Shown: positions 178-57,525 of the stretch, in pieces | Numbering within the stretch: the stretch's first letter is position 1 | How the letters are laid out: each line of letters starts with the position of its first letter | From: Podarcis muralis | Taxonomy: Eukaryota | Length of the DNA: 64,000 nt | NCBI RefSeq assembly: GCF_964188315.1 | Contig: NC_135670.1 | Span: 11,408,001-11,472,000, forward strand | Reading direction: 5' to 3' | Notes under the pieces: model-generated | Databases searched by the model: none | Told to the model about the DNA's origin: nothing | Seen by the model: only the letters and a program-made list of their open reading frames with translations | Made by a program: the position numbers and the translations under genes

Positions 178-229
178 GCAGCGGGTGCGAGAGAAGATAG
201 AGCGCGACAAGGCCGAGAGAGCCAAGAAG
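178..229 (+). CDS. UBXN1: UBX domain protein 1, internal exon (RQRVREKIERDKAERAKK)
   Basis: ttccag acceptor and gtaagc donor; 52 nt; peptide matches the human UBXN1 coiled-coil as recalled. Confidence 0.93.
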
Positions 230-396
230 GTAAGCAAGCAGCAGAGGCTGGGAAAGGGGTGTGCTCTGAGAGTCGTATTTTTGCTTGTGGCTTCCTTCCA
301 CGAGAGATGTGGGCCCCACAGGTGGAAATAAAAAGAATTAAAAATCGAAAGGAATAATCAAGGTAACGGATGTGCTGTCTCCAGTCTGTTCTGTTT

Positions 397-397
397 C

Positions 398-441
<44 letters not shown>
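397..441. repeat. (AAT)n microsatellite; other (ATT)n runs near 18560-18630, 25995-26035, 35409-35441, 44029-44073
   Basis: Read directly. Confidence 0.95.
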
Positions 442-443
<2 letters not shown>

Positions 444-1779
444 CCCTGCTCATCTGGCTGGGTTTTCCCAGCCACTCTGGGCAGCTTCCAACAAAATATT
501 AAAATACAGTAATTCCAATCTCCTCATGGCTGACCCAGAGGGAGAGAAAGGACAGGGGAGCGAGTGAGCTGAGGCTGATTCACATAGCATGTATCCAAGA
601 CTTGGGGAAACGGCCCTCCAAACATTATTGGGCTCCCATTTGCTATCAGCACTGACCGTTGACCATGTGGCCCGGGGCTCATTGGAGCTGGGAGTCCAAA
701 CAGCACCTAGCTATCTGTATTTCAGCACTGCATGCATTTTAATGGAGTATTTGTAGGAGGGATGTTACGGGAGAGAACTTTCAGAAAGGCCTACTCCCAC
801 CTTCCATGCAAAACGGTGGAAGCCAGCAACAAATGCATTGCAAGCTGCTCCTGCTTGTTTGCCCAAGCTCTTAGGCCAAGGCCCTGCCTGTTGGGTAAAC
901 CCTCCAGTGTTGTTAAACTTAAATTGTAGAGTTGGAAGGGACTCCAAGAGTCATATAACAGACCCTGCGTTTATCATCCAAGGCCTTTTTCATGTGCCTC
1001 CTTCACAAACGATCTGAAGGGCGGCAATACAAGAACGGGCCTTTTCTGTGGTGGCTCCCCGCTTGTGGAACGCCCTCCCTGCGGAGGCTCCCTGGGTGCC
1101 TTTGTTACATATCTTTAAGCATCAGCAAAAACATTCCTCTTCTCCCAGGGTTTGACTATTTAAACCATCTATAGCCTTTTAAACTGTGGGGGTGGGAATT
1201 CCTTTTGTTCGTTGCTATGGTATGGACTTCTGTGTTTTCCTATTGTAAAGCACTCTGTGACCCTCGGATGAAGGGTGATGTCAAATTTAATAAATGGTAA
1301 TAGTAATAACAACCTAGTCCAACCCCTTGCAATGAAGCAGTTGCCACTACAGACTCCTTGACAGATGGCCATCCCTCCGCTTAAAATGAAGAAGAGACCA
1401 CCGCTTCTCATGGGAGTCCGTTCCACCATCAAACAGAAAGTTCCAGAACTTTCTGCTGCCAGAAAGTTCTTCCAGATGTTTAGTCGGAATCTCCTTTCTT
1501 GTCTTTTGAATCCATTGATTTCAAATCCCCCCAGAGCACCATCTTCTCTGTGACAGCCCTTTAAATAGCTGAAGACTGCTCTCTGTCTCCTTCTCTGGGC
1601 TAAATGTTGCCCACCTCCCTCAACCGTTCCTCATAAGGCTTGGTTTCCAGACCCTTGATCATCTTATTCGCCCAGCTCTGCACACTTTTCAGCTTGTCAA
1701 TATCCTTACGGGGTCCTCACCGCGGGATCACATTCACCCGGTGTTATACCAGCTGCACTGACTCCCGGTGGAGTACAGG

Positions 1780-2270
1780 ATCAGGTTTAAGGTGCTGGTT
1801 TTTACCTTTAAAGCCCTGTACGGCTTAAGACCCTCGTACCTACGGGACCGCCTCTCCTAGTATGTCCCACAGAGGACCTTACGGTCTTCAAATAAAAACA
1901 TCTTTGAGATCCTGGGCCACAGGGAGGTTAGGCTGGCCTTGACCAGAGCTAGGGCTTTTTCAGCTGTGGCTCCAATCTGGTGGAACGCTCTGTCACAAGA
2001 GACTAGGGCCCTGAGGGACTTGACATCTTTCTGCAGGGCCTGCAAGACAGAGCTGTTCCACCAGGCCTTTGGTCCTCACAGAACTCTAGCCCAATGGTTG
2101 CCATTAATTTGATTTTGAATTGATTTTAGAATGAATTGGTTTTAGAATGCATTTCAATCAATTGATTGTGATTTTATGTAAATTGTGTTACTTTTATTGT
2201 TGTTAGCCGCTCTGAGCCCGGCTTTGGCTGGGGAGGGCGGGATATAAATAAAATTATTATTATTTATCAT
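1780..2270 (+). mobile_element. L2/CR1-clade LINE 3' fragment with (ATT)n tail
   Basis: Degenerate VL.FKAL.GL.P.YL.DRL reverse-transcriptase C-terminus and microsatellite tail. Confidence 0.6.
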
Positions 2271-2386
2271 TAATTTGCGAACAGGGCTTTCTGCCCTAGA
2301 GTGCAAGCCTGCCCTGAGAACATACATCAGGGTGATGCTGGGCGGCAGTCTTTTGTCCACTGACCCACCTCTCCTTTTCAATTCAG

Positions 2387-2515
2387 TTTGGCGGCGGCTG
2401 CAGCAGCTCTTCCCAAGGCTCCACCCTGCCTGAGCAATCGGCCCCCACCCCGGTTCCCTCGTCACCCAGCCAGGAACCCCCCGTCAAGCGAGAGTATGAT
2501 CAATGCAGGATACAG
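2387..2515 (+). CDS. UBXN1: UBXN1 internal exon (FGGGCSS...PVPSSPSQEPPVKREYDQCRIQ)
   Basis: attcag acceptor and gtaac donor; 43 codons, phase 0/0; PVPSSPSQEPP.KREYDQCRIQ motif. Confidence 0.93.
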
Positions 2516-2926
2516 GTAACTGACTGCGGGGCAGGCTGTGTGTTTGTGTTTGTGTGCAGAGAGCTGCTTGTTCCCATCTGTTTCTTGCACACACCATAAG
2601 CCACTCTGCTTGCAACATACAGCCATGTGGTGGCCGGCCTTAACCTTTTGCATTCCTGCCGTAAAAGACTCCCTGAAATCTTCCCTGCCTAATGCAAGCA
2701 GAAGTAGACCGTGCCAGGTTATCAGCGGTCCAGCCATGCAAACTGGAGGAGACTGCAGTTCCAAATTGGTCCCTGCTGTGAGCCTCCTTTCACTTGTCCC
2801 CTTTTAATTTTATTGATCTTAAAATAAATACAGAAGTAGAACCATGTCGGAATGCAATTAACAGAAAATGCAAACAGCAGTTCAAGCTCTTTGCCCAGGA
2901 TGCACAACCAAAAAGGGACAGCCTGA

Positions 2927-3263
2927 TTGTTGTTGTTGTTTAGTCGTTTAGTCGTGTCCGACTCTTCGTGACCCCATGGACCAGAGCACGCCAGGCACTC
3001 CTGTCTTCCACTGCCTCCCGCAGTTTGGTCAAACTCATGCTGGTAACCTCGAAAACACTATCCAACCATCTCGTCCTCTGTCGCCCCCTTCTCCTTGTGC
3101 CCTCCATCTTTCCCAGCATCAGTGTCTTCTCCAGGGAGTCTTCTCTTCTCATGAGATGGCCAAAGTATTGGAGCCTCAGCTTCACGATCTGTCCTTCCAG
3201 TGAGCACTCAGGGCTGATTTCCTTAAGAATGGATGCGTTTGATCTTCTTGCAGTCCATGGGAC
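2927..3263 (-). mobile_element. BovB (RTE) LINE 3' fragment with (CAA)n tail
   Basis: WTARRSN...LQYFGHLMRREDSLEKTLMLGK...RWLD...VHGVTKSRTRLND. Confidence 0.93.
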
Positions 3264-4350
3264 GTTAGATAATACTAAATCTATACATCCTATTCTTTGA
3301 TCCTTATTGGCACATCTCATAAAACCTGTCAGAGAGTAAAGAAGGGGTATTCCCCGGGACCCACACAAAGGATAATGGGAATATGAACCTACTTTTTCCA
3401 AAATAATGGTAATATTTCTTAGTGTTTCTGTAGTGCTTTCAAGTACTTCGGTGTAATATCTAGCTGTAATCCTTACACAACAACCCTGCAAGATATTATT
3501 ATTCACCACATTGCAGATGGGCTGGTGGGGGGGGTGGACTGAGATTGAGGGCTTGCTTAGTAAGGCCACCTAGTATTTTCATGGCAGAGGCAAGGCTCCA
3601 GATGTTGACTTCCTGACTGCAGCTCAGTATACTTTGCATGCAGAAATCACCAGGTCCAGTTCCTGGCATCTCCCAGTAGGGCTGGGGAGCCACTCCCTTC
3701 CGAAACCCTGCAAAGCTGCTGCCGGTCAGTGTAGACAGTACTGAGCTGGATGGACCAATGGTCTGACTAAGGAAAGGCAGCTTCTGTGGCTTCCTGATGA
3801 TTTTCTGGAGTTCGTGGTGGTGTCACTTGAGGTAGCTTTAGGCAGGTCCCTACTTCTGATCTCCATCCCCACATTTGCAACAAAATAGGGATGATGATGA
3901 TGATGATGATCATCATCATCATCTACCCTGTGGTTAAGGATTATCAAGAGTGTGTGCAGGAAGCATATGAACCACATAAAGCACTAACAATCCTTAAACC
4001 TTAACATTCTTAATTATTAAAGAAATAAGCAATTACCATTGCATGGTTGAAACCTTTGGCAGATAAGAAATCTCCAAGTTCTGAATGAGGGTCTTTAGTA
4101 AAAACAACAACACAACAACTTAAAATTACATGTGCATTGTCATCCCAATGGCTGCAGTTAAGATTAACCACAGTTTAGGGTTCAGGTGTAACGCTAAACC
4201 GCAGCTAGCCAAAAACGTACGTTTTCCCATCTCCCCTTGGCCGTGCTGGAAGGAGAGGGAGGACAGCCCAGAAGCCCCAAGGCTTATTCATGTTCATGGA
4301 TGCGACAATCATGCACCATTTCAGATCCTCTCCCCCTCTCTTTTCCTCAG

Positions 4351-4534
4351 GTGAGACTGCTGGACGGCACGTCGCTCACCCAGACGTTTCGAGCCAAAGA
4401 GCAGCTGGCCGCCGTCCGGCTCTACGTGGAGCTGAACCGCAAGGACAATGGTGACGAGCCTTTCCACCTCCTCACCAGCTTCCCGCGGCGTGTCTTCACT
4501 GAGGAGGACATGGAGAAGCCCCTGCAGGAGCTGG
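4351..4534 (+). CDS. UBXN1: UBXN1 UBX-domain exon ([27 protein letters not shown]...[18 protein letters not shown])
   Basis: cctcag acceptor and gtgagt donor; UBX R...FPR signature. Confidence 0.95.
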
Positions 4535-4730
4535 GTGAGTCTGAGATTGCTGGGGCAGGAAGAGGGAAGGGGGTGAGGGTTGCTTGGAGTGTTTCCCTCC
4601 TGCTACTCCGTGGAGGATGGAGGAATTCTTGGGCAGGCGCTGGGAACCTCTGGGTCACGAGCCCAGTTTGTCCCAGCACAGCTCCCAGTTTGGCCTACGA
4701 TGCCCACCAAGCTACGTCCCGCTCCTAATA

Positions 4731-4947
4731 CAGTGGTACCTCGGGTTAAGTACTTAATTCGTTCCAGAGGACTGTTCATAACCTGAAGCGCCACTTTAGC
4801 TAATGGGGCCTCCCGCTGCCGCTGGAGCACGATTTCTGTTCTCATTCTGAAGCAAAGTTCTTAACCCGAGGTACTATTTCTGGGTTGGTGGAGTCTGTAG
4901 CCTGAAGCGTATGTAACCTGAAGCGTATGTAACCCGAGGTACCACTG
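4731..4947. mobile_element. Tc1/mariner (pogo/Tigger-like) MITE; further copies 5774-5999, 12390-12631, 18259-18469, 25653-25894, 36616-36809, 44201-44597, 45392-45614
   Basis: TIR CAGTGGTACCTC, TA target duplication, shared internal sequence. Confidence 0.88.
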
Positions 4948-6122
4948 TACCTTATGTGACGTCAGGTAGAGATGCAGTCGGTCAGGCTGTGTGTGGGGAG
5001 CTCAGTTGCGCAGCCAGTCCCTGCAGAAAGCAGGCTTGAAATCATTGCCTATTAGCTCACACGTTTTGACTTCAAGCTTGTGAATTAGTTGTGTGCTGTA
5101 TAAAGCGCTTGCAAGCCCAAAGTCCTGACAATCGTCACCCCAAGTCAGGTGATTGACAGATGAGCCAGGGGAGATGAGGACCCGCCCCCCGGCAACACCA
5201 GGTTCCCGAACCATCCTAGGCCAAAGCACTGTCTGTTGAAAGCTGACCCATTTTATGCTACATCTAAGAACAGAGAGAGCCTGTACCAGAGGAACTGGTG
5301 ACCTAATTTTTTTAGTTGCTGTTTTGTTAATATTGTTTTATAGATTCTAAGTGCCATGTTGATTTGTTGACCATATGATATGACTTTTGCTGTAAATGTG
5401 ATGGTTAGCTTTTTTTTTAGTTCATTTTGTTAATAGCGTTTTATAGGTTGCAATTGTTTTATTGAGGATTTGTTAATTATTTCATACGATTCACGCTGCA
5501 TTACGTTATTATGTATTGTTGGTAAGCCGTTTTGAGATCCATTTGAATGAAAAGCAGCCTAGAAATACATCAACTCAACCCAGAAGCTGCTGAACTCCAG
5601 CTCCCATCAGCCTCTGCCAGAATGGCCCAATGCTCAGGATGGGAGTTGCAGTCCACCAATATCTGGAGAGCCAGTTTTCCCCCAGACGCAATTGGAACAC
5701 ACACATTTCATCATCCCCGACTGTTGCCTGGCCCAGTTCTAGGGAGCCAGTTCCCAACTTCACCAGAACAGTACAGTGGTACCTCGGGTTACATACACTT
5801 CAGGTTACAGACTCCGCTAACCCAGAAATAGTACCTCGGGTTAAGAACTTTGCTTCAGGATGAGAACTGAAATTGTGCTCCAGCGGCGCAGTGGCAGCAG
5901 GAGGCCCCATTAGCTAAAGTGGTGCTTCAGGCTAAGAACAGTTTCAGGTTAAGAACAGACCTCCAGAACAAATTAAGTACTTAACCCGAGGTACCACTGT
6001 ACATAAATATTGACTGTTTTGCTTTGACCCAAAGTTCTAACACCACATAGGCCCTGCTAACTGCTGAATGTGAGTTTTCCCCATTACCTCCCACTCTCTG
6101 CCTCTCTCTGTCTCCTCTGTAG

Positions 6123-6172
6123 GTTTGGTGCCTTCTGCTGTGTTGATCGTAGCGAAGAAAGGCAACAGCTGA
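6123..6172 (+). CDS. UBXN1: UBXN1 last coding exon (GLVPSAVLIVAKKGNS*)
   Basis: ctgtag acceptor; phase 1 continues the previous exon; AATAAA at 6479-6484. Confidence 0.93.
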
Positions 6173-6640
6173 AGTGGCTCTCCTCCTCGCTCTCTCAGCC
6201 CCCTCCTTCCCTTGCTGCCGGAGGTGACTCTCACCTGACCCATGTGCTCTGTCTCTGGGGGAAGCGCACATGCCAGCCCCTCCTGGTTTTCCTAACCAAC
6301 TCTGCCCACAGAGACTCCAAAGCACCACCATGTCTTGGGGCTGGGATTCCGAATCAATGGCGACGATCGGGGTGGGGTTGGATGCGATGGAGAAAAGTGT
6401 TGGGCTTCCCCTCCTGTCGGGGAGGGAGGGGCAAGGTTGCAACTTGACTTCCTCTCTTCATGCCACACACACACCATGAATAAAACCTATTCTCTCTTTC
6501 CTTGCTTCTTGCGAGAATTCTTTAATCCCATTTGTTAACAGGTAGGGCACTCGGAGTCATCTAGTTGGCATTGGGAGGGCAGTGCCTGGGGCTCTCATCC
6601 AGGAAAAGGCTGCTATCCTGCCTTGTCTCTCTACTCCGGG

Positions 6641-7798
6641 GTAAAGGTAAAGGGACCCCTGACTGTTAGGTCTAGTCGTGACCGACTCTGGGGTTGCGGC
6701 ACTCATCTCACTTTATTGGCCGAGGGAGCCGGCGTACAGCTTCCGGGTCATGTGGCCAGCATGACTAAGCCGCTTCTGGCAACAGAGCTGTCAGCGGCTG
6801 CCTCAGGTCCCAGCTCACAAAGGACCAACGCCAGTTGCTCTTTATAAACAAAAGTCTTTATTGTGGTTCATTGTTGGTTTGATATCCGTGGCGCGCAGCG
6901 CTACGTCTGAGTCCTTAGACCGGCGAAGTCCCGTCTGAATCCGCCCCTCCTTTACACCAGTTCAATACCCGAGCTTTGCTCCACCTCTTCCTTTCCTCCC
7001 TCTGCTCCTTTCGCCTCCGGGTCCTCCTGCCCTCTGGGGTCCCAACCCTCCTGGACTCTTCGGAGGCGGATTCTTCTGACTCCTCCCCCTGTCTCCGGCG
7101 GGCTTTGGGACCTGGCTCCCAATCCGGATTTTCTGCTGTCCCTCGCGCCTCTACATTTGAACTTGGCGCGCGCGCCCAGCCGCCCACTTTCCTCCTAACG
7201 GCTACACTGCTCCCTTCACTGCTTTCTCCTTCAGGGAGGCTGGCCGGCCCTGCTCTCTCCTCCGCCCCTCCACTCTCTGACGGAGGCTTGGTCAGTCCTG
7301 CCTCCCTCTCCTCCTGCAGGAGGAGGCTTTTGTTCTAATCTGTGGGATTCTTCCCCCCCCCCCCGCTGCGCTCTGGTGGGGAAGCTACCCCTGATTTCCA
7401 GCTGCCGCTTGGCGACTCCCCACTGGCCCCCCTTGCCCTGACCCTGGGGGCCTCCTTCTGGGAATCTTCTGATTCGCTGGAGAGACTCAGGGAATCTCTC
7501 TGGTCACTGTCACACCCTCCTGCGCTCCCCTCCGATTGTTCCCCTTCGCTCTCCATCTCCTCCTTCTCCTGTGGCTCAGTCCCTGAGCCCCTGACAAGAG
7601 CGCACGGAAACGCTGTTTACCTTCCCGCCAGAGCGGTACCTATTTATCTACTTGCACTTTGACAGGCTTTCAAACTGCTAGGTTGGCAGGAGCTGGGACT
7701 GAGCAACGGGAGCTCACCCCGTCACGGGGATTTGAACCGCCGACCTTCTGATCGGCAAGTCCTAGGCTTTGGTTAACCCACAGCGCCACCCACGTCCC
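6641..7798 (-). mobile_element. Sauria SINE split by a solo LTR
   Basis: tRNA-like head, (ACCTTT)n tail, flanking TSD tctactccgggg. Confidence 0.9.
6789..7596 (-). mobile_element. Solo LTR (808 bp, Gypsy/ERV-like)
   Basis: TGTCAG...CTGACA termini; 5-bp TSD AGAGC; AATAAA near the 3' end on the minus strand. Confidence 0.85.
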
Positions 7799-9452
7799 TT
7801 CTACTCCGGGGACTTTGATGTATTTAATAGGTTTTTTAAAAAACAACAACTGAACTTTCTAAAAAGAAAGAAAAATGCAGACAATGCAAACCAAATCTGT
7901 GGGTACAAGCAAAGGGAGGAAAGCTGGTGGTCCAGACCAACCCAGCGCTCAACCCAGAATAGATCTGTACAAAGAATCCAGATATCAGAGAATTTCCTGG
8001 TCACCTTCTCATATGCTGCCAGTTGAGTCATGGCTTTTGTCCTCTGTAGGGGTGGTGAGGATGTCACCTTTCTGTATTAGAGTGTTAGACATTTAGCCAC
8101 CCTGAGTGCCCTTAGAAGCCATTTACATAGTCCCTCTGTCAGGTTCCAGAAGACTGGTGCATAATTCAAGAGAACATCCATAAATCTCAAGGTGCTGAAA
8201 ACTGTATTTATGCCGCTGATGACCTCTGGCCAAAAGGGTGTGACTTCATGTATTCATGAATGAAGTTTCTACCACACTCTCCCCTCCCAAGCAATTAAAA
8301 ATGTAGTAAAGAACATACTTTGAAACACCCCTTCATCATTGTCAGCTTTTAGGCACCAGGTTAAGACAATTGTATATACCAGGCCTTTGATAGTTAAATT
8401 AGCCTCTACAATGGTATTCACATTTTTGTAGGCTCAGATTATCATTTTAGGAATTTTGTGTTGTACATCATTTTAATTATTTCTGGTTTTTATATTGTGT
8501 TTTTTATTTTTTTAAGTTGCTTTGAGACTTCCTGTCTAAAGCAATTGACAAATGTAATGAATAGCAACAATTTTAAAACATTAACATCTGAAAGCTTTTT
8601 AAAAAACCAGCCACTTGCCCTCTAAAGTTCCTAGAAACTACATACCAGATATCAAAAGACCTGGGTGAAGAGGACTGTTTTTAAATGCCACCTGATTGCT
8701 CATAATGAGGAAGACAGATGCATCTCAATGGGGGGGGGATTACACAAATGAGGAGCCACCACTGAGAAGGCCATGCTGCTTATGGGGGTCACTGCCAATT
8801 GGACAAACCTTCCATCAGGGTCCTGGATGGTTGGTATTTGAGCTGCTATTTTAGATGTCATGTTGTGCAATTGTAGGAATTGGTGTGTCTTGCAACTGCA
8901 GCAGCCTCTTTTAACAGCACTCAACAATTAGTTTTGCATCCTTTTAAATCCCCTATTGAAGCCAGTGGCCCTCCTTGACCTCTTTCACAAATTGTGTTGT
9001 GGGAGGGAGCAAGGAACCTCTTCCTTCCACTTCTCTTTGCATGCTGCTGCAATTAAGATAAAAACCAGGGAGGGGGACCCCTAAGTGAAACTATAGCCCC
9101 TGATGCGGAAACAGAGCTTGATTTAATTAAAACAAATCCAGTTAAATATTTACATAGAATACATGGTGCTTAGGGTTGGGTTTTTTTAATGCAGGAGGAA
9201 GCAGATTTTCTCCCCTCCCAGCTATGACATACATCACAGCTTCTACTGACAATCTCCGTCGTAAGGAAAGCATGATATGCTAAAGTCTCTGCAGAGGGTG
9301 CACGGTGCCTTCTTGGCATATAAACCAGCTTGCCACGGACATCGCAAACAAATCCAGGGTATTTCCCTCCATTAGTCTTTTATTGGCTACGGTCTGAACT
9401 GCTGCCAGATCCGGAAAAAGATTATGTGCATCCAGTAATGGGGTATTGCTAT

Positions 9453-9517
9453 TCACTCATCTTTCTTGTAGCTTCCAACTGGGTTTATCCACACAGTAAC
9501 ACCCCAACAGAAGAGAC
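9453..9517 (-). CDS. DMAC1: DMAC1 (TMEM261) exon 2 (CLFCWGVTVWINPVGSYKKDE*)
   Basis: Pyrimidine tract plus CAG acceptor; phase 1; WG-hydrophobic-P tail like human GIATWGIVVMADP; AATAAA at 9379-9384 (-). Confidence 0.8.
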
Positions 9518-9948
9518 CTGGAAGGGAGAAAAAGAAAAGCGTGTGAGGGGTGTGGCCTGAGGAAGAGTTCCAAGGGCCAGATAGAGGGGCCCATTTGGCC
9601 CCCTGGTCCTGAGGTTTCCCACTCTTGATCTTAAGTCAGCCAAGGATGTATGCCACAAACAGCAGGAAGAAACAAAGGGTGCCAGTGGCAGAGCTGACTT
9701 CGAAATAGACATCGCCAATACCCCGCAAGACGAGGGAAGAGAAATGATTGCTAGTCTATCTGATTTAAGGGCAGATTTCCTGCCCCACATATGTTGAATG
9801 ATAACTAGGAGAGAGATTAGCACTCCCACTGAATCAACTTTCCCAAGTACAGTTTGTGGGGGAGGGGTCACCCTAGAAAATAAGGTGCACCTCTCAGCAT
9901 AGATCAACCTCTGAATAAGAAATGGGCCTCAGTAATCAGAGCAGTAAT

Positions 9949-10305
9949 GGGACGCGGGTGGCGCTGTGGGTAAAAGCCTCAGCGCCTAGGGCTTGCCGAT
10001 CGAAAGGTCGGCAGTTCGAATCCCCGCGGCGAGGTGCGCTCCCGTCGTTCGGTCCCAGCGCCTGCCAACCTAGCAGTTCGAAAGCACCTCCGGGTGCATG
10101 TAGATAAATAGGGACCGCTTACTGGCGGGAAGGTAAACGGTGTTCCGTGTGCGGCTCTGGCTCGCCAGAGCAGCGATGTCACGCTGGCCACGTGACCCGG
10201 AAGTGTCTCCGGACAGCACTGGCCCCCGGCCTCTTGAGTGAGATGGGCGCACAACCCTAGAGTCTGTCAAGAGTGGCCCGTACGGGCAGGGGTACCTTTA
10301 CCTTT
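9949..10305 (+). mobile_element. Full-length Sauria SINE in the DMAC1 intron
   Basis: Head, body and ACCTTT tail; TSD taatcagagcagt. Confidence 0.92.
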
Positions 10306-10794
10306 AATCAGAGCAGTGGAAGATAAAAGTAATGACAATGGTTATTCACCATGACAACAGAGCACCCATGGTCAACAGCTGTCTACCCACTGAGGGCCAG
10401 GTGCTGGGAACAAACAGGGTGGGAGAGGGACGAATGCCCTGACGCCCAGCTGAAGAGCTAATAAAACACCTGGCCGTAAAGAAGTCGCTGGCCTAGACAG
10501 GGATCTGATTACTGAGGCCCATGCTCACAGAAGGTCCCAGGGGCTGAATCCCCCAAAGGCATCCCCAGAAAGGGCTTCCTATGCTCCCGTCTGAAAATAG
10601 TGGCTTCAGTTCACAACCATGAGGACTAGAAACTTAACTTTTCCAAGAAGCAGAGGCAGTGGGTGCCCCCTGGGACTGGCAAGGTAAGGTCTGAAATCCA
10701 CACCAACTGGCTCAGAAAGGCAGACCTAGGTACCTATATGCTCAGAGGCAACATCACCCAAATGTCAGTCTCCCAGTCGGTCCTGGCACTGAGC

Positions 10795-11327
10795 CCAGGG
10801 CCAGATTTATGTATATGCTAAACAAGCTATAGCTTAGGTCCCCCGTCACTTGGAGGCCCCCCAAAAAATTAAAAGAAAAAAACTGGATGTACATTTCTAA
10901 AATATAAGGTAAAAAACAAATAAAATAAAACCTACATACAGCAAGAGTGTTTTGTGTTGTGTAGGCTCCTATGATGTAAGTAATGGGCCCTGCCTGCTAG
11001 CCTGCTCCCTAAAATATCACTGGTTTGCTCCTTTCTATATATAGGGTGCCTACATTCTGCATGGACTGGTTGCAGGGCAACATGTAGCATGCAGCTGCAG
11101 GCTGCAGTGCAGCACAGTTGAATGTAGTAAGTCAAGCTGTTGTACCTGCTATCTAATATTAAAGAGTGCTTGCAGACTGATGATCAGGCAGCACAGACTA
11201 AGGGTACGAGCATATATTCAACACACAAAAACAGCGACAATTTGTTGTTGACAAAGGACAGCTGGACACATAAAGGGTCCCATTACCTTCAGTAGCTTAG
11301 GGCCTCATCAAGCCTAAATCCGGCCCT
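10795..11327. mobile_element. Non-autonomous hAT element in the DMAC1 intron
   Basis: TIR AGGGCC(A/G)GATTTA; approximately 8-bp TSD (a/c)ctgagcc. Confidence 0.65.
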
Positions 11328-11413
11328 CCTGAGCCGCAGCTCAGCCTGGAGCCGCCGCGCCCCCCCCCGCCCCCAGAATTGGGCTCCCGCCCCTCTCTGC
11401 GCCCCCCACTTAC

Positions 11414-11612
11414 AGACGGCGAAGGTCATCTGGGCGATGTTGCCCATGCTGGGGGGGATCCTGTGGCTCATAATCCGGAGGGGCCCCGAATAGACGAACA
11501 AGGAGGAGGCGATCAGCGCCCCCCCGCTCAGGGCGCGGCAGCTGAAGCAGGACCAGAAAAAGGACCGTTTCTGCTCCGGTGAGGAAGCGGCGCGCTCGAC
11601 GCTGGAAGACAT
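11414..11612 (-). CDS. DMAC1: DMAC1 distal membrane-arm assembly component 1, exon 1 (MSSSVERAASSPEQKRSFFWSCFSCRALSGGAL...PPSMGNIAQMTFAV); 87 aa in total
   Basis: CxSCRxLSG motif and PPS..I.QM segment of DMAC1/DUF4536; GTAAGT donor; CpG island. Confidence 0.85.
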
Positions 11613-11630
11613 GCCGCGGCTTTCCTGCGG

Positions 11631-11671
11631 GGGCGGGAAGATGGCGGCGCCCAGGACACCGCGCCGGAAGC
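11631..11671 (-). promoter_or_regulatory. DMAC1 CpG promoter/5'UTR: GC box, YY1 site (aagatggcggc 11638-11648), ETS/GABPA site (ccggaag 11664-11670)
   Basis: Consensus motif matches inside a CpG island just upstream of the ATG. Confidence 0.55.
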
Positions 11672-13694
11672 GGCTTGCGCCCAGAAGCCGCTCTGCTTCC
11701 TGTCCCTCGTCTCGGTGGAAGCAGAAAGCGCGGCGTGCACTGCAATGGATGTCCGGCATGCCAACAACTTCCCGATCGATTGGTTCCCCCATCGATTTGA
11801 ATGGTCATGCTGGCTCCCGTCAACGTTTGCAGGTGGAGGCAAATCTCAAGAAGAGAGGAAGGGGGAATTTCCTCCCTCCAGGAGATATTAGTTAGTTAGG
11901 GAACATCAAGCTGATTACGTCCAGCTTTTTGTCCACTTCTCCATCTGTATAAAAGCCAGCTTTCCAATATTCTTCAGTGGAAGAATAGAACTGAGGATAA
12001 GGCTTTTGCGAGGGAAAGGGGCTTATGCAGGCTGTGGCGATAAAAGCAGGTTTGATTCTGATGGGTGGGCTTCACAGAGAGCAGGTTTAGACCATGCTTA
12101 GGCAGACCTGCTAGGGCAAATCATAGAGTAGGAAAACTCCAAGGGTCATCTAGTCCAACCCTCTTGCAATGCAGGAATCTCAGCAAGAGGGCCCACATTC
12201 AATGTGAAACCATACCGGGGGGCGGGGGGGGGGGCTTCCCTGTCAATGCGTCATCCCACAGCTAGCCGCCACTTGCCTGCCTTCTGATATGCAACCAGTC
12301 CAGGAGTTAGCCCTGCCTGTCAGATTCCTACTCTTTTGTGTCAGTGTTGCTTCTTGTAAAACTCAACCAGGAGGAAGATGGGGACAGTACAGTGGTACCT
12401 CGGGTTAAGTACTTAATTCGTTCTGGAGGTCCGCACTTAACCTGAAACTGTTCTTAACCTGAAGCACCACTTTAGCTAATGGGGCCTCCTGCTGCCGCTG
12501 CACCGCCGGAGCATGATTTCTGTCCTCATCCTGAAGCAAAGTTCTTAACCTGAAGCACTATTTCTGGGTTAGTGGAGTCTGTAACCTGAAGCGTATGTAA
12601 CCTGAAGCGTATGTAACCCAAGGTACCACTGTACTAGAATTAGATGGTTCCAGCTTCTGTTGGGCTCCCTGCCTTCTGCCCAAGCAGTTCCAAGGTTCAC
12701 CAGCCACCACAGTCTGCACCCAAATGGTCTTCATAAGATTTCTCATTTTTTTTCACCCATGCCAATGAATAGCTGTCATTCAGTCTAATGGGGAAACATT
12801 TAAGTCAGGGATGAGGAACCTGTTTCTCCAGGTGATGACAAACTCAAACTTCTACCAGCCTTATCAGCATACTGAAAGAACCATGGATTATGGGAGTACA
12901 GCAACTTTCAGCAGTGCACAGGTTCCCTAAGTACTGTTCATGGCAATGTCACGGCTGTGAGGGCCCAACCTACCATTCCATGCCTGGCAGTGGGTGGCCT
13001 GAACCTCAAGCGATAAGAGGTCATGGAAGACGGGTAAGGAAGCTTTTTTCTGTACAAGAGGACCACGTTCCTTTCTGGGCAACCTTCTGAGCACCACATG
13101 CCAGTGGTAGGCAAAGCCAAAGGCAAAAGTAGACACAGCAATGAATGTTACCTTGGTACAGTGGTCTAGTTTCTACGCAATTACCTCTGTATCCTCCACC
13201 CAGGCAAACAAGACACAGGATCAGAATCCAAGGCTGCATTCCAGCCAGGCAAACACTTGTGGGGCACAAAGCAGGTGAGAGGTGCTACTTGAAGAAAGTT
13301 CTGAGAATCAGATAGGGAGGCCTGAAGGTCTGCATTCGGCCCCTGGGGCTGAGGTATCCTGCTCTGGCTGGAACGTGTATGTTGTCATTGTACAGACAAC
13401 TTGGCAAAATATAAGCCCCCCCCCCTCTCTACACATGTATTACTTTCGTAACTACAAACTTCTTTTTTGTTGTTGCTAGTTTACAACAAACCCTTAAATA
13501 AGTACAGGTGTCGTTGTGATGTACAAAGGAAATTTTATCGCTCAATGTTTACACCAAAGCAACCCTTACAGCAAGAAGACAAAACAGAAGAATCTCTCCA
13601 TTGAAGACACAGTAAAGTTCTCCTAGATCCAGCTTCTGCAAAGTTCTCAGTTTAGAATAGAGTCCAGCCAGCACAGACTCTTTCTGTTTCACTG

Positions 13695-13826
13695 CTATTT
13701 TTTCCAGGGCCATGGCTTGTGAGCCACATTCTCATCTGTCTTCGATGCCTCTTTCAGGATCTCCATTACCATGGCGTTATGTTTTTGCCGCTCAGTCAAC
13801 ACCTGTGGGGTAGCATCAGCAAATTC
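13695..13826 (-). CDS. UQCC3: UQCC3 exon 2 (EFADATPQVLTERQKHNAMVMEILKEASKTDENVAHKPWPWKK*)
   Basis: ttcttttctccag-type acceptor; phase 0; LKEA..T.ENVA.K.W motif of UQCC3. Confidence 0.88.
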   Translation of the reverse strand, partial: EFADATPQVLTERQKHNAMVMEILKEASKTDENVAHKPWPWKK

Positions 13827-14129
13827 CTGGAGAAAGAAATAAAGATGTTTAGAAGATCCAAGAGAGGTGCCTTCAAGGGTGAAGTCAAACCGCTGGAGAG
13901 CTGCAGCTACGGCTATAGAGACAGACACGGGAGGACTACATGTGCCCATTGGGGCCAGTATCCTCTACTCTGACTGGCAGCAGCTCTCTCAGGATCTCTG
14001 GGGTCTCTTTCTCTTCAGCTGCTACCTTTAGCCGGAAACGCCACGGGCTGAGCCCGGGGCTCCCCGCAAGTGCACCCTGGCTTCCTCTGACCTCCACCGC
14101 AAACCCCGGAGACTGGAGCTTTCGCCCAC

Positions 14130-14249
14130 CTTCGCCATCTCCTTTCTGCGCGCTTCGTCCGGCGCGACCACGGCCCAAAGCACAAGCCCCGCGCCCGTGA
14201 ACCCCGCCACGAACAAGATCCCCTTTGCTACGCGGTAGGCAGTCTCCAT
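14130..14249 (-). CDS. UQCC3: UQCC3 exon 1 (METAYRVAKGILFVAGFTGAGLVLWAVVAPDEARRKEMAK); 83 aa in total
   Basis: 40 codons; TM helix followed by P..RRKEM.K as in human; GTGGGC donor; syntenic position. Confidence 0.88.
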
Positions 14250-15426
14250 GGAAGCAAACGACACCCCACCGCTCCTAAAACACTCCCCAAAAGACAAGCA
14301 GGAAGGACCAGCCTCCCTGTAAGGGAGAGGGGAAGAAAAAAGGTGGCGCACCACCTAAAGAGCAGAGGTGTGTCTGGGCTAGAGTGTCCCGGCCACAACA
14401 TAGAGATAAGAAAAGGAGAGAGTTATGGAGATGTTAAAGGAGCGCCAAAGAGGGAAGGGAGTCTTGCTCTTTCTAACTCGGGTCTTCATTTGTGTTAGAA
14501 GAATTATTTCGGATTTGGTTTTTAAAATTGGTTTAAAAAATTGCCCTGAAAATGCCGTAGCTCGATGGCAGAGCATCTGCGTTGCAATGCCCAAGGTTCA
14601 GTCCCCAATGGCGTCTATGGAAGAAGCTCCTTGCCTGAAACCTTGGAGAGCCGCTGCCAGTCAGTGTAGGCAGTATTGAGCTAGAAGGACCGGTAGATGT
14701 GACGGGTTTCTTTTCCCCTGGAAAAATAAAGCACAAGGGGGGTGGGAATCCCACCTCACATCACTGGTAAAAAGATGCCAAAGGGATGATTTTATGGTGC
14801 GCTGGAAACCGTATACAGTATCGGACATTGCAGAAAGAGCTCACAGCTTCCTCCCGCGAAGGATCTTATTCTCTCATAATGACCAATGAGCAGAATGAGA
14901 TTATCCTCGTATTCATTATTTTATATAATATTTATTGAGTTTTCCAATTTAACAATCCAACAAAAACCACATTAAATACATTCCAAATTATAATACAACC
15001 AAGAAGACCAAATTTTATGCCAAATTATATATCTTTGGGTGACTTCCCATGCTCTGAAGTTCATATTCATTATTTTAGGAATGAGTAATTAACAATAGAA
15101 ATAATTAAAGTGCATCTACTGTGAATGCAGCAGATTGCAGGTTCAAGCCCCAGAATCTCCAGATCTGAAGCCTCAGAGAACCACTACCAGTCATAGAATC
15201 AGAATTGTGTAGGGTCCTGAGGGTCATCTAGTCCAACCCCTGCAATACAGGAATCTCAACTAGATCATACATGACAGATGGGCATTGGATGGACCTCTGC
15301 TTTAAAACCTTCGGGGAAGGAGAGTCTACCCCCCTCTCGTGGGAGTCTGTTTCCCTGTCTAGACAATCCTGAGTTAGACGGACCAATGGTCTGACTCAGT
15401 GTAAGGCACTCCCTATGTTCCTTGAC

Positions 15427-17070: not shown

Positions 17071-17422
17071 GGGACATGGGTGGCGCTGTGGGTTAAACCA
17101 CAGAGCCTAGGACTTGCCGATCAGAAGGTCGGTGGTTTGAATCCCTGCGATGGGGTGAGCTCCCGTTGCTCGGTCCCTGCTCCTGCCAACCTAGCAGTTC
17201 GAAAGCACGTCAAAGTGCAAGTAGATAAATAGGTACCGCTCCGGCGGGAAGGTAAACGGCGTTTCCGTGCACTGCTCTGGTTCGCCAGAAGCGGCTTAGT
17301 CATGCTGGCCACATGACCTGGAAGCTGTATGCCGGCTCCCTCGGCCAGTAAAGCGAGATGAGCGCCGCAACCCCAGAGTCAGCCACGACTGGACCTAATG
17401 GTCAGGGGTCCCTTTACCTTTA
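17071..17422 (+). mobile_element. Sauria SINE
   Basis: Full head-to-tail match to the other copies. Confidence 0.9.
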
Positions 17423-39338: not shown

Positions 39339-41580
39339 TAGGGTTGTCATATTTTGAACAAAAAAGGGGACACATTTGCAGACTTTTACTTTTAACTACG
39401 GATCACTATGGCAGCTCTAATTTTAAACACCCCTACTATATGTAGGCTATAGAACCTGTGATATATTGCTAGTACTAATGCTCTTAACTTTCAACAACAA
39501 AATAATAACAATTTAAACTCATGTATCGGTACAAATATAAACCAATACCTTTATGTCACTTTCAGATGCACTTTATTCTTCTTTCTGACACTGTCTGGCC
39601 TAAGCCTATTTCTCTGTAGATCTGATCTTGTTCAACAACTGCTTATTGCTTAAGAGATAGGCATGAAATTCCTTGCAAGTAAAGTGCTCATAATTATATT
39701 GTACTAGCAATATACTTCGCAGTGATTCAAAAGGTAAGTTGCCTCCTTCTTTGCTCCACTGACTTTGCATCAGAGAGAAGATGCGTTCCACAATCGCATT
39801 ATGTGGTACAATAGCAAAAAAAAAACTGTGCAATTTTCAGAAGTTCTGACTGGCACATGTTTTTGGAAGTCTCAAAGTATTTGGCCCACTTCTGATGCGC
39901 CTGTAGATTAATGAATTCATCATCACCTTTGTATTGATTTACAAACTTCCGGAGGTTGAAGAATTGATCAAAGCACTTTCCATAATCTATGGAGACATGC
40001 CTGTCCAGGAGAAATTTCATGGAAGATTCTACCTTGTCCCACTCTAGTGACTCACTAAGAGACATCCACATGAAGCATGAAAACTCCTTCATGGGCTCCA
40101 TCCATTTTTCCAGATATTCTATGCACCTGTCGTATAAGCTATTTACTTCTGCACGGAATTTGTCACACTCCGCACTAAGACCATGCTTACGCTTTTCTGC
40201 TAGGAGGCTCTTAACTTTGAGGCACATAAAGTTGTTGCTCTTACGTTCAGTAAGCATGTTATGAACACAAAGCAGAACTTTCAGAACCTCTACAACTGAA
40301 TTATTTTCCCTCTCGAGTTCCAAAATATTTGAGTGAAAGATACTCATGAGAGACTACAAGTGCAATAAATAAACCTCACTGAACTCATGTTCAAAAAAGT
40401 CTTTTAACACTGTTGGTGGTTTATTCTGCGAGAGGAAAAACGCCTTGACAGCTGGAAACAGGTGAATGAGTCTAGTGATACTTGGAAATAATGACAACCA
40501 CCTTGTTTTGCTATGCGATAGCAGCTGTTTGTATTCAATGTCCACAAATTCACAGTACTCCTTTAACTGCTCTGTTCGGACTCTATAGATATGAAAGTAC
40601 TGGTATATCCTGAAAAGGATGCCCTCAACATCGACGTCCAACGTTTCTGCTGCCTGCTGTACGCAGTTATTCAAAATGTGTGCTGGACATTCCACACCAA
40701 TTAAAGTTTTGTTATCTAGCTCATTCTTCAACTTTGCAAACACATTTCTTCCTTCTGAATCCCATGGCATCCCTCCAAACATTGTGTTGCAGTTGTCACC
40801 TGTGAACGCTATACATTTATTTAGTAGTCCTTTACTATCAAGAGTTTCCTTCACATATGAGGAGATTGTATCTGCACTCTCGTTGGGTTGGCTTTGCATT
40901 TCAATTATTTTGGACTGCAAACCACCACTTTTCCAGTCAAAATATTGAATAACTATCGGAAACACCTTTACCGAACCATGGTCACTCCCACCAGTAGAAA
41001 CTCCGCAAAAATCTACTTCATTTTCTTCAATGCTTTTCAAAACGTTTTCTAAACAATCAGGTGCCAAGACAGAATTTACAATTGCCTCAGTCTTGGTTTT
41101 TGCACTTGAAAATATCCTTGCAATATCGTAATCTGGGAACGTGGTCCTCAGTGGGCCTGATGTGCACACCATCATGTTATAATTGCTGTGGTGCCTAACA
41201 GTGTGAAAAGCGAAAGTTCCCTCTGCTGCGGTTACTTCATCTTCCAAACTGCTACCTGGTTTCACGAAAAAGTCTGTTAAGAAAGAAGCTTCTCCCTGAA
41301 TTGCTCTTTTGTGTTTTTCGGAGTCCACATGCGATTGCAGGTTGAGTCCTCCTTTACATGCCACAGAAACAAACGTACCTGGTTTACATATCATGCATTC
41401 ACCTTCGAAATCATCTCTACCTCTTCTAAAACAGGTATACTTCTTCTGTAGCTTGACACGTAGAAGTACACCTACAAAAAACAGTTGTGAAATAAGTTAA
41501 TACAATGCTACAGTACATGACCATTAACTTTCCCAAGAGCACCTAACAGAGGGACACGGGATTGTCCGTGTGGCATCTAT
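39339..41580 (-). mobile_element. Decayed autonomous hAT transposon (Blackjack-like TIR); transposase broken into ORFs 41394-40354, 40347-39799 and 39833-39606
   Basis: BED finger CxxC...H..SxKH; DNCNT, C.AH, TRWLS and NA.VERIFS hAT motifs; one terminus tagggttgtca. Confidence 0.85.
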
Positions 41581-47683: not shown

Positions 47684-48038
47684 GGACGCGGGTGGTGCTG
47701 TGGATTAAACCACAGAGCCTAGGACTTGCTGATCAGAAGGTCGGCGGTTCGAATCCCTGCGACAGGGTGAGCTCCTGTTGCTCAGTCCCTGCTCCTGCCC
47801 ACCTGGCAGTTTGAAAGCATGTCAAAGTGCAAGTAGATAAATAGGTACTGCTCCGGCGGGAAGGGAAACGGCGTTTCCGTGCGCTGCTCTCATTCACCAG
47901 AAGCGGATTAGTCATGCTGTCCACATGACCCGGAAGCTGGACGCCGGCTCCCTCGGCCAGTAAAGCGAGATGAGCACCGCAACCCCAGAGTCGGCCACGA
48001 CTGGGCCTAATGGTCAGGGGTCCCTTTACCGTTACTTT
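47684..48038 (+). mobile_element. Sauria SINE
   Basis: Match to the other copies. Confidence 0.9.
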
Positions 48039-50740: not shown

Positions 50741-51937
50741 GTACTGATTCTCTTACCTCTTCTCTCTCCTCCCTGCCACCTGTAAGGGACTAGGACACCC
50801 CCTTTACGCTGGCACCACCCAGTCCCTTCATCTTTGTACAGAGGGTGTGTTGATGGTCACTTGCTCTGGTGGCTCTGGAAAGGAATAATTACGCTTGTGA
50901 CATTTTACAGAGGTCCCTGCCTCAAAGAGCATGCAGTCTAAAATCCGAAGAGAAGTGGTAGCAGGGAGGGTTAACACAGGGAAAGCATATGTACCATTTA
51001 TGTGCATTTTGGGTGAAGTTGCGGCTACTATTGTGCACAGCAACGGGGGTTGGACTAGATGACCCGTGGGGTCCCTTCCAACTCTGCAAATCTATAAGGC
51101 TTGTTGGGAAATTCAGAAGTGACAGATAGGGTGCCTTGGGATGGGAAATAGGACTGGAGGCAAAGCATCTGCTTTGAGCTCAGAAAGTACTAGGTTCTGT
51201 ACCCAGTAGCATCTCCAGGCAGGGCTGGGAAGAACTGCCTGAAGCCCTGGAGCTACTGCCAGTCAGTGTAACCAATACTGAGCTAGATGGAGAAAGGATC
51301 TGACTTGGTATAAGGGAGCTTCCTATGTTAACATGCTGGATCAGACTCAGGGCTAATAATTACAGAATAATTTTTGAAAGGAAGCTCTCACCACTGGACA
51401 ACTTTCCCCTACCCTGGTCATGTTTTTCTTGTGAAAAGACACATGCATAAGTTCAAATATTTAGCAAATCACATTTTAAAGCAAATTTTAAAAATCATTA
51501 ACACCAGCCATCGTTTATAAAGTGGACTGTGAGCTTATGAATTAAACAGAACACTTTTTCAAGCTGGATAGGGGGGGGGAATTGAAAAGAGAGAAATGCC
51601 TCTGTGGGAACACATGGCGATAAACCTAGTTTCTGTTGTGAGATGGTAATAGAGTAAAGCAGGCATAGGCAAACTCAGCCCTCCAGATGTTTTGGGATTA
51701 CAACTCCCATGATCCCTAGCGAACAGGACCAGTGGTCAGGGATGATGGGAATTGTACTCTCAAAACATCTGGAGGACTGAGTTTGCCTATGCCTGGAGTA
51801 AGCCCTTGCAAGCAAATTAAGGCCCCACCTGTACTACACATTTAAAGCAGTATCATACCACTTTAAAACAGTCTTGTTTAGGAACATTGACCCAGGAATG
51901 ATGCTATGTTTCCTTCTTTTTCCTTTGCCTCCTGCAG

Positions 51938-54746
51938 TTCGCAAGAGCTGGCCCAGGAAATCAAGGCCTTCCTTAGTGGTGTAGACCCTTTGCACGGCAA
52001 CAAACTCACCCTGAAGGAGCATGCCCGATGCGCCATCCTGCTGCTGCGCAGTCTGCCACCTGCTCGCAGCGCCGTCCTGGACCACCTCCGGGGTGTCTTT
52101 GATGAGTACGTGTGCACCTACTTGCTGGACCTGGAGAGCAGCGAGGGTGGGCTGGGCTCCATCCGCTCCCAGGGTCCCAACCTGGACGACGTGGTGCAAG
52201 AGATCCAGGCCGTGCTGTCCGAGTTCGTCCGCATGAACCCCAAGGCGTGGGCAGGCTTGGTCTCGGCCTGGTCCATCGACCTGATGGGACAGCTGAGCAG
52301 CAAGTATGCTGGCCGGCATGGCGTGCCCCACGCCAGCAGCCTCAACGAGCTGCTGCAGCTGTGGATGTCCTGCAAGGCGACTCGGACGCTGATGGAGATC
52401 TACACGCAGTGCCTCTCCTCCATGATCAGCACCTGCCCGGACGCTTGCGTGGACGCCCTGCTGGACACCTCGGTCCAGCACTCTCCGCACTTCGACTGGG
52501 TGGTGGCCCACATCGGCTCGTCCTTCCCCAACACAATCATCAACCGCGTGCTCTCCTGCGGGCTGAAGGACTTCTGCATGCACGGCACGGCCTCGGCCGA
52601 CCTCCTCCTCTTCCCTAGCGCCACAGCGGCAGACAAGAGGGTGCCCAAGATCGCCTCGGTGGTGGGCATCCTGGGCCACTTGGCCTCCCGCCACTCCGAG
52701 AGCATCAGGCAGGAGCTGCTAAGGATGTTCCATGGGAGCCTGGGCCCCACGCGGGACCAGCAGCAGAAGGCCACTGTGCCCTTCTTGCTCCAGCTGGCCG
52801 TCATGTCTCCCACTCTGCTGGGCACCATCTCGGCCGAGCTGGTGGACTCCCTCAAGCCAGGCGTGCTCAACCAGCTGCACCAGCACTTCGCCTCGCTCCC
52901 TCGGGAGGACCTGGAGAACATGGTCAGCATCGTGGTGCACCTCATCTGCCAGACATCGGGAGGAGCTTACCGCACCCTGCAGTTCCTCATCAACACAGCC
53001 ATGCCGGCTTCTGTCATCACCACCCCAGGCCTGGCCGTCCACGACAGCGTGCGGGAGGCTTGCGACCGTGTCATCCAGCTGCTGCTGCTCAACCTCCAGA
53101 AACTGGTGTACAACCGGGGCTCGGCCAGCTTGGCGGAGGCCCCTCCGCGGCCGGTGCCTTTCCTGGACGAGCTGAAGGGCCACGTGCGGGAGCTGTGCGT
53201 GGAGACGCTGCGGCTGGAGAGGAAGAGGTTCCTCTGGCAGCACCAGCTGCTGGTCCTCCTCTCCGTCTACTGCACCCCCAGCTGCGCCAGCGAGGCCCTC
53301 TTCTTTTTGCTGACGCTGGCCAAGAGCCAGGAGGAGCTCAGCCTGGCCACTCAGCTCTACGCCGTGCTCAGCTCTTGCATGAGCGACCTGCTGCCGGCCA
53401 CCGTGAAGAAGTGCGTGTGCCAGATCCACGCTGGCGGCCTCTCGGAGCAGCACATGGCTCAGCTCTTCCAGAACCTGGCCTTGATCATGCAGAGGGAGAG
53501 TGAGGGCCCCGCCTCCATGGGCCACCAGCTGGGTGAGGCTGTCGCGGCGCACCTCTATGACTTCGGGCAGCTCCTGCTGCACTGCAACCCAGAGGTGGCC
53601 CAGGTGGCGGCCTTGCTGCTCTCCGTCTGCCCCATGCCAAAGGCCATCCGGCCGGCTCACCTCCTTTTCCTCATCCGCTCGGCCGTCCACCACTTCTTCC
53701 TAGTGCTGCGCTGCAAGTGCCCCACGGGCATCAGCTACGGAAGCCGCCTCCTCTGCTGCCTCAGCGGGGCTTCGCCCACCGCTGGCAAGGCCATACTTCA
53801 GTACCTGGTGGAGGGGGCCCTGCACCCAGGGAACGCCGAGCTCTTTGGTGGGCTGCCCGAGCCTCCTGCAGTCGGGAACGACCCTGCCGCCCTGGAAGGC
53901 ACCAAGGTCTCCCTGCTGGATATCAACCGGCGATTTATGGCCGCGGTGAACTTCTCGGGGAGTGTGTGGTCTGTCTTCCATGCCGGCGTGATTGGGAGGG
54001 GCCTGAAGCCGCCCCACGCCCCCTACCAACGAGAGCCGGAGGAGGTCTCCCACAACGTCCAGACCTTCCTGGGGTTGCTGCTGCGGTGCTGCGGAGCTGA
54101 GCGCTGCAGCCCGGAGCCCTCCCAGCACGCTGCCGTCAGCCCCGAGGCGGCGAAGACGGTGGCGGTGGTGCTGGTGGAGACCGTCTGCCCTGACATCACC
54201 AACAGCGAGTTGGCGTGGCCTCCGGAGGAGCACACCCGCAACACAGTGGAGCGGGATATCCAGATCGGGAGGGCTTTCCGCGACAACCCCCTGCTCTTCC
54301 AGCTGCTTAGCCTGGTGGCGGCGGGGAGGCCGGCCCTCTGTTACTGCTCGGTGCTTCTCCGCGGCCTCCTGGCGACTCTGATGGCGCACTGGGAGGCTTC
54401 GCGGGAGAACGACACCACCAGCTCCCCCTGGCACCTGCAGGCCTCCTGCGCCCTGGTGGCCTGCATGGGCGAGGGCCACCTCCTCCCGCCCGTGCTCAGC
54501 AACATGCATGAGATTTTTGACCAGCTGGCGCCCTTTGAGGTCCACCTCTTGCTCCTCAGCGTCTGGGACTACATGCGCGACAACAGCCCGCTGCCGCAGA
54601 AGTTCACCTTCAACGCTGGCACAGGACTCTTCTTCCGGGACTTCAGCAGAGACACCGACATTGGCAAATACCTTTGCGTTCTGCACAGCGTCCTGCATAA
54701 AAACATTGACCGGCTGGGGTTGCTCTCGGGGCGCTTCCAGATCTAG
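51938..54746 (+). CDS. INTS5: Integrator complex subunit 5, large exon 2; 965 aa in total
   Basis: [46 protein letters not shown] motifs; two-exon structure as in human. Confidence 0.97.
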
Positions 54747-57489: not shown

Positions 57490-57525
57490 ACAAAGAACTG
57501 TCCAAAATATGTAGTAGATATGCAT

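Follow-up and report, generated by a model that had tools for sequence, protein, structure and literature searches.

By sequence comparison, the long minus-strand frame of a solo LTR in the lacertid lizard Podarcis muralis is the C-terminal end of Pol, about 225 residues in length, and not an accessory gene. The LTR lies in a stretch of 64,000 nt (contig NC_135670.1, positions 11,408,001 to 11,472,000), hereafter the window, to which coordinates refer. The Pol frame of full-length copies stays open for 1540–1550 codons, past the integrase and the remains of a chromodomain, across the polypurine tract (PPT) and to the end of U3. We consider it probable that the end of Pol coded by the solo LTR is an integrase tail, under selection and predicted to be disordered, that likely acts as a nuclear-import and chromatin-tethering arm. 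The solo LTR itself is a recombination leftover that carries the code of the tail without a start codon or promoter for it.

The solo LTR and its frame

The LTR (808 bp, 6789–7596, minus strand) reads U3-R-U5 from 7596 down to 6789, its orientation being set by the PPT and Pol of full-length copies, and belongs to a self-priming Ty3/Gypsy retrotransposon. Its termini (TGTCAG at 6789, CTGACA at 7596) and a 5-bp target-site duplication (TSD) on the plus strand (left copy 6784–6788, right copy 7597–7601) bear out the earlier note, which had described a solo LTR of this length. The LTR splits a SINE-like repeat at 6641–7779 (parts 6641–6788 and 7597–7779, no strand assigned), which we take to be a Sauria SINE; intact relatives are found in the window at 17101–17422, 47713–48034 and 57525–57846, and RNA reads from other copies of the repeat jump from 6780 to 7599, matching an insertion of the LTR into it. 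A preference of the LTR family for SINEs as target was rejected, with 1 of 101 junctions as compared with 7 of 656 control points.

The frame reported earlier, running on the minus strand from ATG 7556 to 6915, was verified with its 214 codons, its single TAG at 7335–7337 and its C-terminal peptide, as was the AATAAA after the stop (6857–6862, minus strand), likely the poly(A) signal. ATG 7556 does not mark its start, as no stop interrupts the frame between the LTR edge and this codon, and the Met is replaced by Leu or Thr in sister subfamilies. The coding sequence of the Pol tail (6915–7595, minus strand), interrupted in the window copy, fills the whole U3 and stops 22 nt within R. Comparison of the window copy with an open copy showed that the TAG is not a point change: two length differences that cancel each other, one of them in the variable G run near 7355–7364, throw residues 69–84 of the reported frame out of register, and the TAG lies among these. 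This homopolymer (7352–7367, minus strand) measures 7–17 bases among copies and is the source of most frame interruptions in the subfamily. The codons of a basic block and a hydrophobic/Trp motif, a predicted helix, occupy 6942–7030 (minus strand), and a TATA-like word at 6961–6967, which by its position may act as TATA box, overlaps the codons preceding the Trp; the Trp codon of the window LTR precedes the putative RNA start by 23 nt. The 11-nt self-primer, corresponding to the putative RNA nt 1–11, is located at 6926–6936 (minus strand), with R starting at 6936.

The coding strand of the LTR is poor in T (99 in 808 bases). In the shuffled controls proposed by the earlier note, a span of ≥213 codons with one stop appeared in 378 of 1000 dinucleotide shuffles of the LTR, and a stop-free one in 78 of 1000; the length of the frame is at chance level and was discarded as evidence of coding. 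We count the frame as real because it is conserved across subfamilies, not because of its length.

A search of the lizard's own genome with the LTR returned 40 full-length matches with 98–100% identity, and an exact 26-mer of the window-subfamily LTR occurs 120 times. Thirty LTR copies were fetched; a PPT on the left marks five of them as 3' LTRs, and another two are 5' LTRs. Collecting family copies had been suggested as a test of the TAG: 12 of the 30 are open to the terminal stop, 16 are shifted, nearly all at the G run of 7–17 bases, and the window copy is one of two that are net in frame with an internal stop. Among 30 copies of the window subfamily that include internal sequence and LTR, register is kept into the LTR in 15 and four are open from the chromodomain to the C-terminus; in 12 a 1-base shift falls at one or the other of a pair of G runs preceding the PPT, and three are shifted otherwise. 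The window subfamily is either mostly broken by slippage or mis-assembled at homopolymers.

Pol from the integrase to the end of U3

The internal region flanked by LTRs of this kind, which the earlier note had asked to be identified, consists of gag and pol of a Ty3/Gypsy element, with Pol entering the LTR in frame. The integrase frame is continuous with the LTR frame in three loci (L013, L015, L019), and a natural copy of the window's own subfamily (L114; 805-bp LTR, stop at LTR position 679) has 1542 uninterrupted codons that end in the C-terminal peptide of the window. In sister subfamilies with 86–90% identity in RT-IN (L098–L103, L107–L110), uninterrupted Pol comprises 1540–1550 codons, 209–220 of them within the 3' LTR; in one of these subfamilies a 1544-codon frame is present in 85 of the 109 best matches listed, a list biased to intact copies. 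U3 is thus protein-coding as had been proposed, but not for a separate protein, the frame being part of the same chain as Pol in L114 and the sister subfamilies. Nor does the idea survive that solo LTRs spread an independent accessory protein, since the frame is the C-terminus of Pol, has no conserved Met and lies upstream of the putative RNA start. Such Pol chains are already annotated automatically in UniRef as 'Gypsy retrotransposon integrase-like protein 1' of Podarcis muralis (P0006–P0010, P0035–P0037), and P0008 (1498 aa) includes the entire tail; these entries name the same chains and are silent on LTR overlap, selection and location bias. The parallel drawn earlier was with MMTV Sag and lentiviral Nef, which are coded in U3 and expressed only from the 3' LTR side. 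In env-bearing retroviruses Sag and Nef are each a gene in its own right, with a start and an mRNA to itself, whereas the lizard frame has neither a conserved start codon of its own nor a reading frame apart from pol and is the Pol end of an env-less retrotransposon; coding in U3 is common to both.

Full-length elements measure 6.5–6.7 kb and are filled by gag and pol, with no room for env, and no env family was found among their domains. Two of them (L033, L036) show the order gag (Retrotrans_gag, Ty3_capsid, CCHC), protease, RT, RNase H, integrase and SH3_Tf2-1, and the closest PDB match is Ty3-G Gag-Pol (E 3.9e-135). This order of gag followed by PR-RT-RNase H-integrase between LTRs, together with TG...CA LTRs, PPT and short TSD, is that of Ty3/Gypsy elements (Metaviridae). 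From the Gypsy/ERV lineage suggested before, the Gypsy part is retained and the ERV part dropped (no env; best solved relative Ty3 Gag-Pol). The heptamer GGGAAAC is present at the gag/pol overlap in seven of ten elements checked (L114, L033, L108, L098, L100, L103, L182). It is a slippery heptamer as in PEG10, and Pol would be translated by a -1 frameshift at this site.

No tRNA primer site was found after the 5' LTR; in its place, 2 nt downstream of the 5' LTR, begins an 11-base stretch complementary to 11 bases inside the LTR. Both partners co-vary: the long-tailed clade has four variants of the pair and short-tailed families have another three, and the complement is absent or shorter in L099, L116 and L036. 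Self-priming is described as typical of the Tf1/sushi group (PMC6317226), and Tf1 RNA is reported to act as its own primer with its 5'-terminal 11 bases (PMC7175516); by this likeness we infer that the RNA starts at window position 6936. Pfam Chromo scored above cut-off in all three short-tailed families and below cut-off (E 0.013–0.019) or not at all in the window's clade, where the domain is alignable and has Glu or Arg in place of its conserved Trp. We class the window element as a self-priming (Tf1/sushi-like) Ty3/Gypsy retrotransposon; the tree built here covers the families of this lizard genome.

Selection on the frame was estimated by Nei-Gojobori dN/dS on natural copies in 11 pairs. 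The earlier note had named this check, and the LTR-coded part gave 0.19–0.27 in the seven deepest pairs, between subfamilies, which indicates purifying selection on the LTR frame, and 0.26–0.56 in the four closer pairs; the enzyme core gave 0.04–0.09 (deep pairs) and the tail before the LTR 0.23–0.46. Fisher p values for three gap-free pairs were 1e-5, 7e-6 and 0.006, and in codon-blind DNA alignments third-position mismatches were 1.5–2.5 times as frequent as first-position ones in most pairs (e.g. 38/192, 39/191, 86/190). The frame-preserving indel bias that had also been proposed as a test was not seen in the codon-blind alignments (25 of 92 gaps multiples of three), counts that are uninformative because the aligner splits gaps; the lengths from LTR start to stop (631, 658, 679) differ by multiples of three. 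Short-tailed families with about 60% identity in RT-IN share the layout with LTRs of 367–437 bp, and 70–110 LTR codons are found in five of ten full-length loci, the other five being truncated or shifted; their U3 dN/dS is 0.14–0.41 (seven of eight pairs computable). Their Pol closes with L-x-W or C-W after a basic block, so the basic/Trp C-terminal motif picked out by the earlier note is conserved between families about 60% identical in RT-IN. The whole U3 doubles as selected protein code, and LTR length tracks tail length between families.

Self-priming short-tailed families are also present at L178–L187, L150, L155–L157, L161, L167 and L173, where the PPT/att junction itself codes for an E-G-G-x-D-V-R-like stretch, the Pol stop lies about -5 to +25 nt from the putative RNA start and a Cys is always beside the terminal Trp. 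The terminal Trp codon is located 23 nt upstream of the putative RNA start in six of seven elements measured, and 28 nt in L182; TTA is the usual form of the preceding Leu codon, which falls on the TATA position, and the Arg, Leu and Cys codons of the motif vary synonymously. The terminal motif probably serves at once as a DNA signal and as peptide code, and with its overlap of the core-promoter position part of its conservation may be at the DNA level.

The residues after the chromodomain number 353–381 in the window's clade and 160–199 in the short-tailed families. The tail consists to about 55% of S/E/G/P/D and has a net charge of about -43; its last 45 residues carry +6 to +9. AlphaFold gave a mean pLDDT of 43.7 for the tail, with one low-confidence helix over the basic/Trp end, which is consistent with disorder. 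Pfam returned no family for both pieces of the window frame and ESM Atlas no usable match for the LTR-coded part. A profile search of 1.84 billion representatives yielded 12 matches, the named ones being Podarcis or generic chromodomains, and identified no relative outside lacertids; two distant matches (P0015, P0017) end in a similar basic and LLCW motif. Homologue searches, limited by length windows and a word index, returned Podarcis or unnamed records only.

Genomic location of the copies

Copies were located by exact-pattern searches, complete for chromosomes C1–C4, and counted as near an end if within 1 Mb of it. On C1–C4, 37 of 99 full-length copies of a young sister subfamily lie ≤1 Mb from a chromosome end (1.6% expected), as compared with 2 of 75 copies of an equally young short-tailed family (Fisher p 7e-9), which has LTR pairs with 99–100% identity and none of nine copies near ends on C5. 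The excess on C1–C4 falls mostly at one end per chromosome. Lacertid chromosomes are described as acrocentric (PMC10654178), so that one end would be centromeric. The other 62 sister copies are interstitial. Near ends we also found 36 of 76 copies of other long-tailed subfamilies and 21 of 91 window-subfamily LTRs, some of them paired; the best matches of the window LTR, mostly solo, are dispersed, with 2 of 31 near ends. In a second short-tailed family (L180), 18 of 29 copies lie on C20, and 4 of the 11 located elsewhere are near ends.

Twenty terminal copies, picked from 47, were examined, of which 13 flank a 395-bp satellite and one lies in telomeric repeats. Among the 18 with both LTRs, 16 have perfect TSDs and 15 show 0–1 LTR differences. 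The satellite-hosted copies occupy about seven monomer positions, some of them reused, and two copies share flanks. Contact with the satellite was seen at 12 of 120 loci in four long-tailed sets, some being the same element, versus none of 40 loci of other families. The satellite is a tandem repeat of 62% AT with 1518 exact matches to one 35-mer, found at one terminal region of several chromosomes (e.g. L130:2760–4131, L198–L206, C13:59.33–59.50 Mb), and is a candidate centromeric or pericentromeric repeat; a search for the CENP-B box gave at best 6 of 9 positions, no better than shuffles. We read the distribution of copies as targeting with a partial bias. The presence of L180 near ends and on C20 implies that retention contributes as well and that tail length is no clean predictor of location.

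Several further observations were made on the copies. Insertions into TTAGGG arrays are present at L051, L052, L071, L074, L091, L140 and L197 (6 of 101 junctions), the one at L197 with its own TSD. Tandem and nested insertions among families occur near ends at L037, L050, L051, L058, L076, L078, L093 and L124. On C20 (30.4 Mb, 2% of the genome) full-length copies of several families pile up (17/40 and 18/29), a behaviour that would resemble that of a W chromosome. The L108-type subfamily has 424 exact 5' junctions; its LTR pairs are identical and open Pol frames recur unchanged in many copies, to judge from which it is a very recent burst.

Expression, proposed role of the tail and alternative readings

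RNA from four runs was mapped on a full-length sister element (159–337 reads each). The reads are sparse and come from both strands; no canonical splice joint on the element was found in these four runs of low depth, and no transcription start site was seen in the RNA data. Depth over the interior of the window LTR is 1–3.6 with all family copies pooled, and 0–0.9 at 8001–9000, the sole side from which sense read-through could enter the LTR. The RNA check put forward in the earlier note turned up background only, with no dedicated or read-through transcript of the LTR frame, and there is no sign in the RNA reads that the solo LTR in the window makes the peptide. As the frame lies upstream of the putative RNA start (6936), a solo LTR should not express it.

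The proposed mechanism begins with an RNA that would start at the self-primer (6936), with U3 entering the RNA only at the 3' LTR, and the tail would be produced only from RNA of full-length elements. The protease would leave the tail attached to the integrase, the acidic spacer (about -43) would present the terminal basic/Trp helix (about +9), and this helix might bind a host factor, by analogy with Ty1 integrase and plant CRM elements. As nuclear-import and chromatin-tethering arm the tail would likely help to steer new copies, and by the same analogy it may be the link to the excess at chromosome ends and satellite. More tentative, and in our view possible but doubtful, is the wider reading that lacertids carry an active vertebrate counterpart of plant CRM elements, with a decayed chromodomain and a U3 coding for a 380-residue arm that homes to terminal (probably centromeric) satellite and telomeric arrays.

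An alternative accepts the continuity of Pol and regards the tail as a tolerated spacer with an NLS, the end excess being due to survival of copies or their duplication with satellite arrays. It would account for the short-tailed L180 family being near ends and on C20, for the dispersed best matches of the window LTR (2/31 near ends), for the interstitial majority of the sister copies (62/99) and for the several satellite copies with a common monomer position, two of them with common flanks. We find it unlikely given the age-matched short-tailed family (2/75 near ends, 0/9 on C5), the terminal copies with own TSDs, about seven satellite positions and 0–1 LTR differences in 15 of 18, and the satellite contacts of the long-tailed sets (12/120 loci, some the same element, versus 0/40). 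A separate accessory protein, made by full-length elements only through cleavage of the tail by the protease or from a spliced RNA, appears improbable. The long, predicted-disordered linker past the chromodomain would be accessible, the tail contains conserved short motifs and a GT donor-like word lies right after the 5' LTR, but this word is the partner of the self-primer and is missing in short-tailed families, no canonical splice joint on the element was present in the four RNA runs (low depth), and a conserved Met is lacking. Expression of the frame by solo LTRs from ATG 7556 as an LTR-borne protein is hardly credible and already contradicted at the window locus, where depth at 8001–9000 is 0–0.9 and the copy is interrupted; in addition, the frame lies upstream of the putative RNA start and the Met is lost in sister subfamilies. 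These points outweigh the purine-rich context of the ATG, the 12 of 30 copies open from ATG 7556 and two automatic Podarcis gene calls (P0012, P0013) that begin inside such tails. With the reading as a Pol tail, gene-like solo LTRs and automatic gene calls are corrected to pieces of Pol.

The closest known arrangements differ from the lizard element in several respects. As described for Tf1, Sushi-ichi and Amn (PMC6317226, PMC7175516), Tf1/sushi chromoviruses share the 11-nt self-primer, an SH3 and chromodomain-like region after the integrase, the Ty3 order and a 5-bp TSD, whereas lizard Pol runs 160–380 residues beyond the chromodomain, filling U3, and the window's clade is without the conserved chromodomain Trp. 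Plant CRM elements of group A are likewise described with a Pol that extends into the 3' LTR, as found here, and with priming by tRNA-Met and a CR motif that replaces the chromodomain (PMC3059260, PMC3605345). The lizard element has a self-primer and no tRNA-Met primer binding site, keeps a chromodomain remnant and has a much longer tail, which resembles no Pfam family; it works like the CRM arrangement without CRM membership. The excess at ends and satellite would likely be a vertebrate parallel to plant CRM elements, with the satellite centromeric only as a candidate. For Ty1 integrase, a disordered linker of about 230 residues is reported, at whose end lie a bipartite NLS and a targeting segment with a Trp (PMC8487063, PMC10050235), and the long disordered linker, basic clusters and short Trp segment at the integrase C-terminus are alike in both. 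Ty1 is of Copia type, with the tail between integrase and RT and binding to Pol III, and the analogy is one of architecture only.

In the freely accessible literature covered we found plant and yeast precedents and no vertebrate account of Pol filling U3 or of a bias to ends or satellite. How retrotransposons find centromeres has so far been examined chiefly in plant and yeast systems. Should the tail drive the satellite and telomeric bias, the element would offer a vertebrate system for this question, with young copies and a dispersed control family of matching age within one genome, and would also mark lacertid centromeres.

The window LTR is located between two convergent genes. On the plus strand, a UBX-domain gene spans 227–6500 (spliced exons 2385–2512 and 4348–4533, last exon from 6122), with the LTR about 300 nt past its reads, and on the minus strand a spliced gene with a DMAC1/Dmo2-like domain covers about 9000–14300 (joints 9515–11412 and 13825–14129). 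The window further contains a single-exon methyltransferase frame (28178–28879, minus strand), a 564-codon frame with one break at 40354 and no clear Pfam family (39799–41496, minus strand) and a long coding exon of INTS5 (51891–54746, plus strand).
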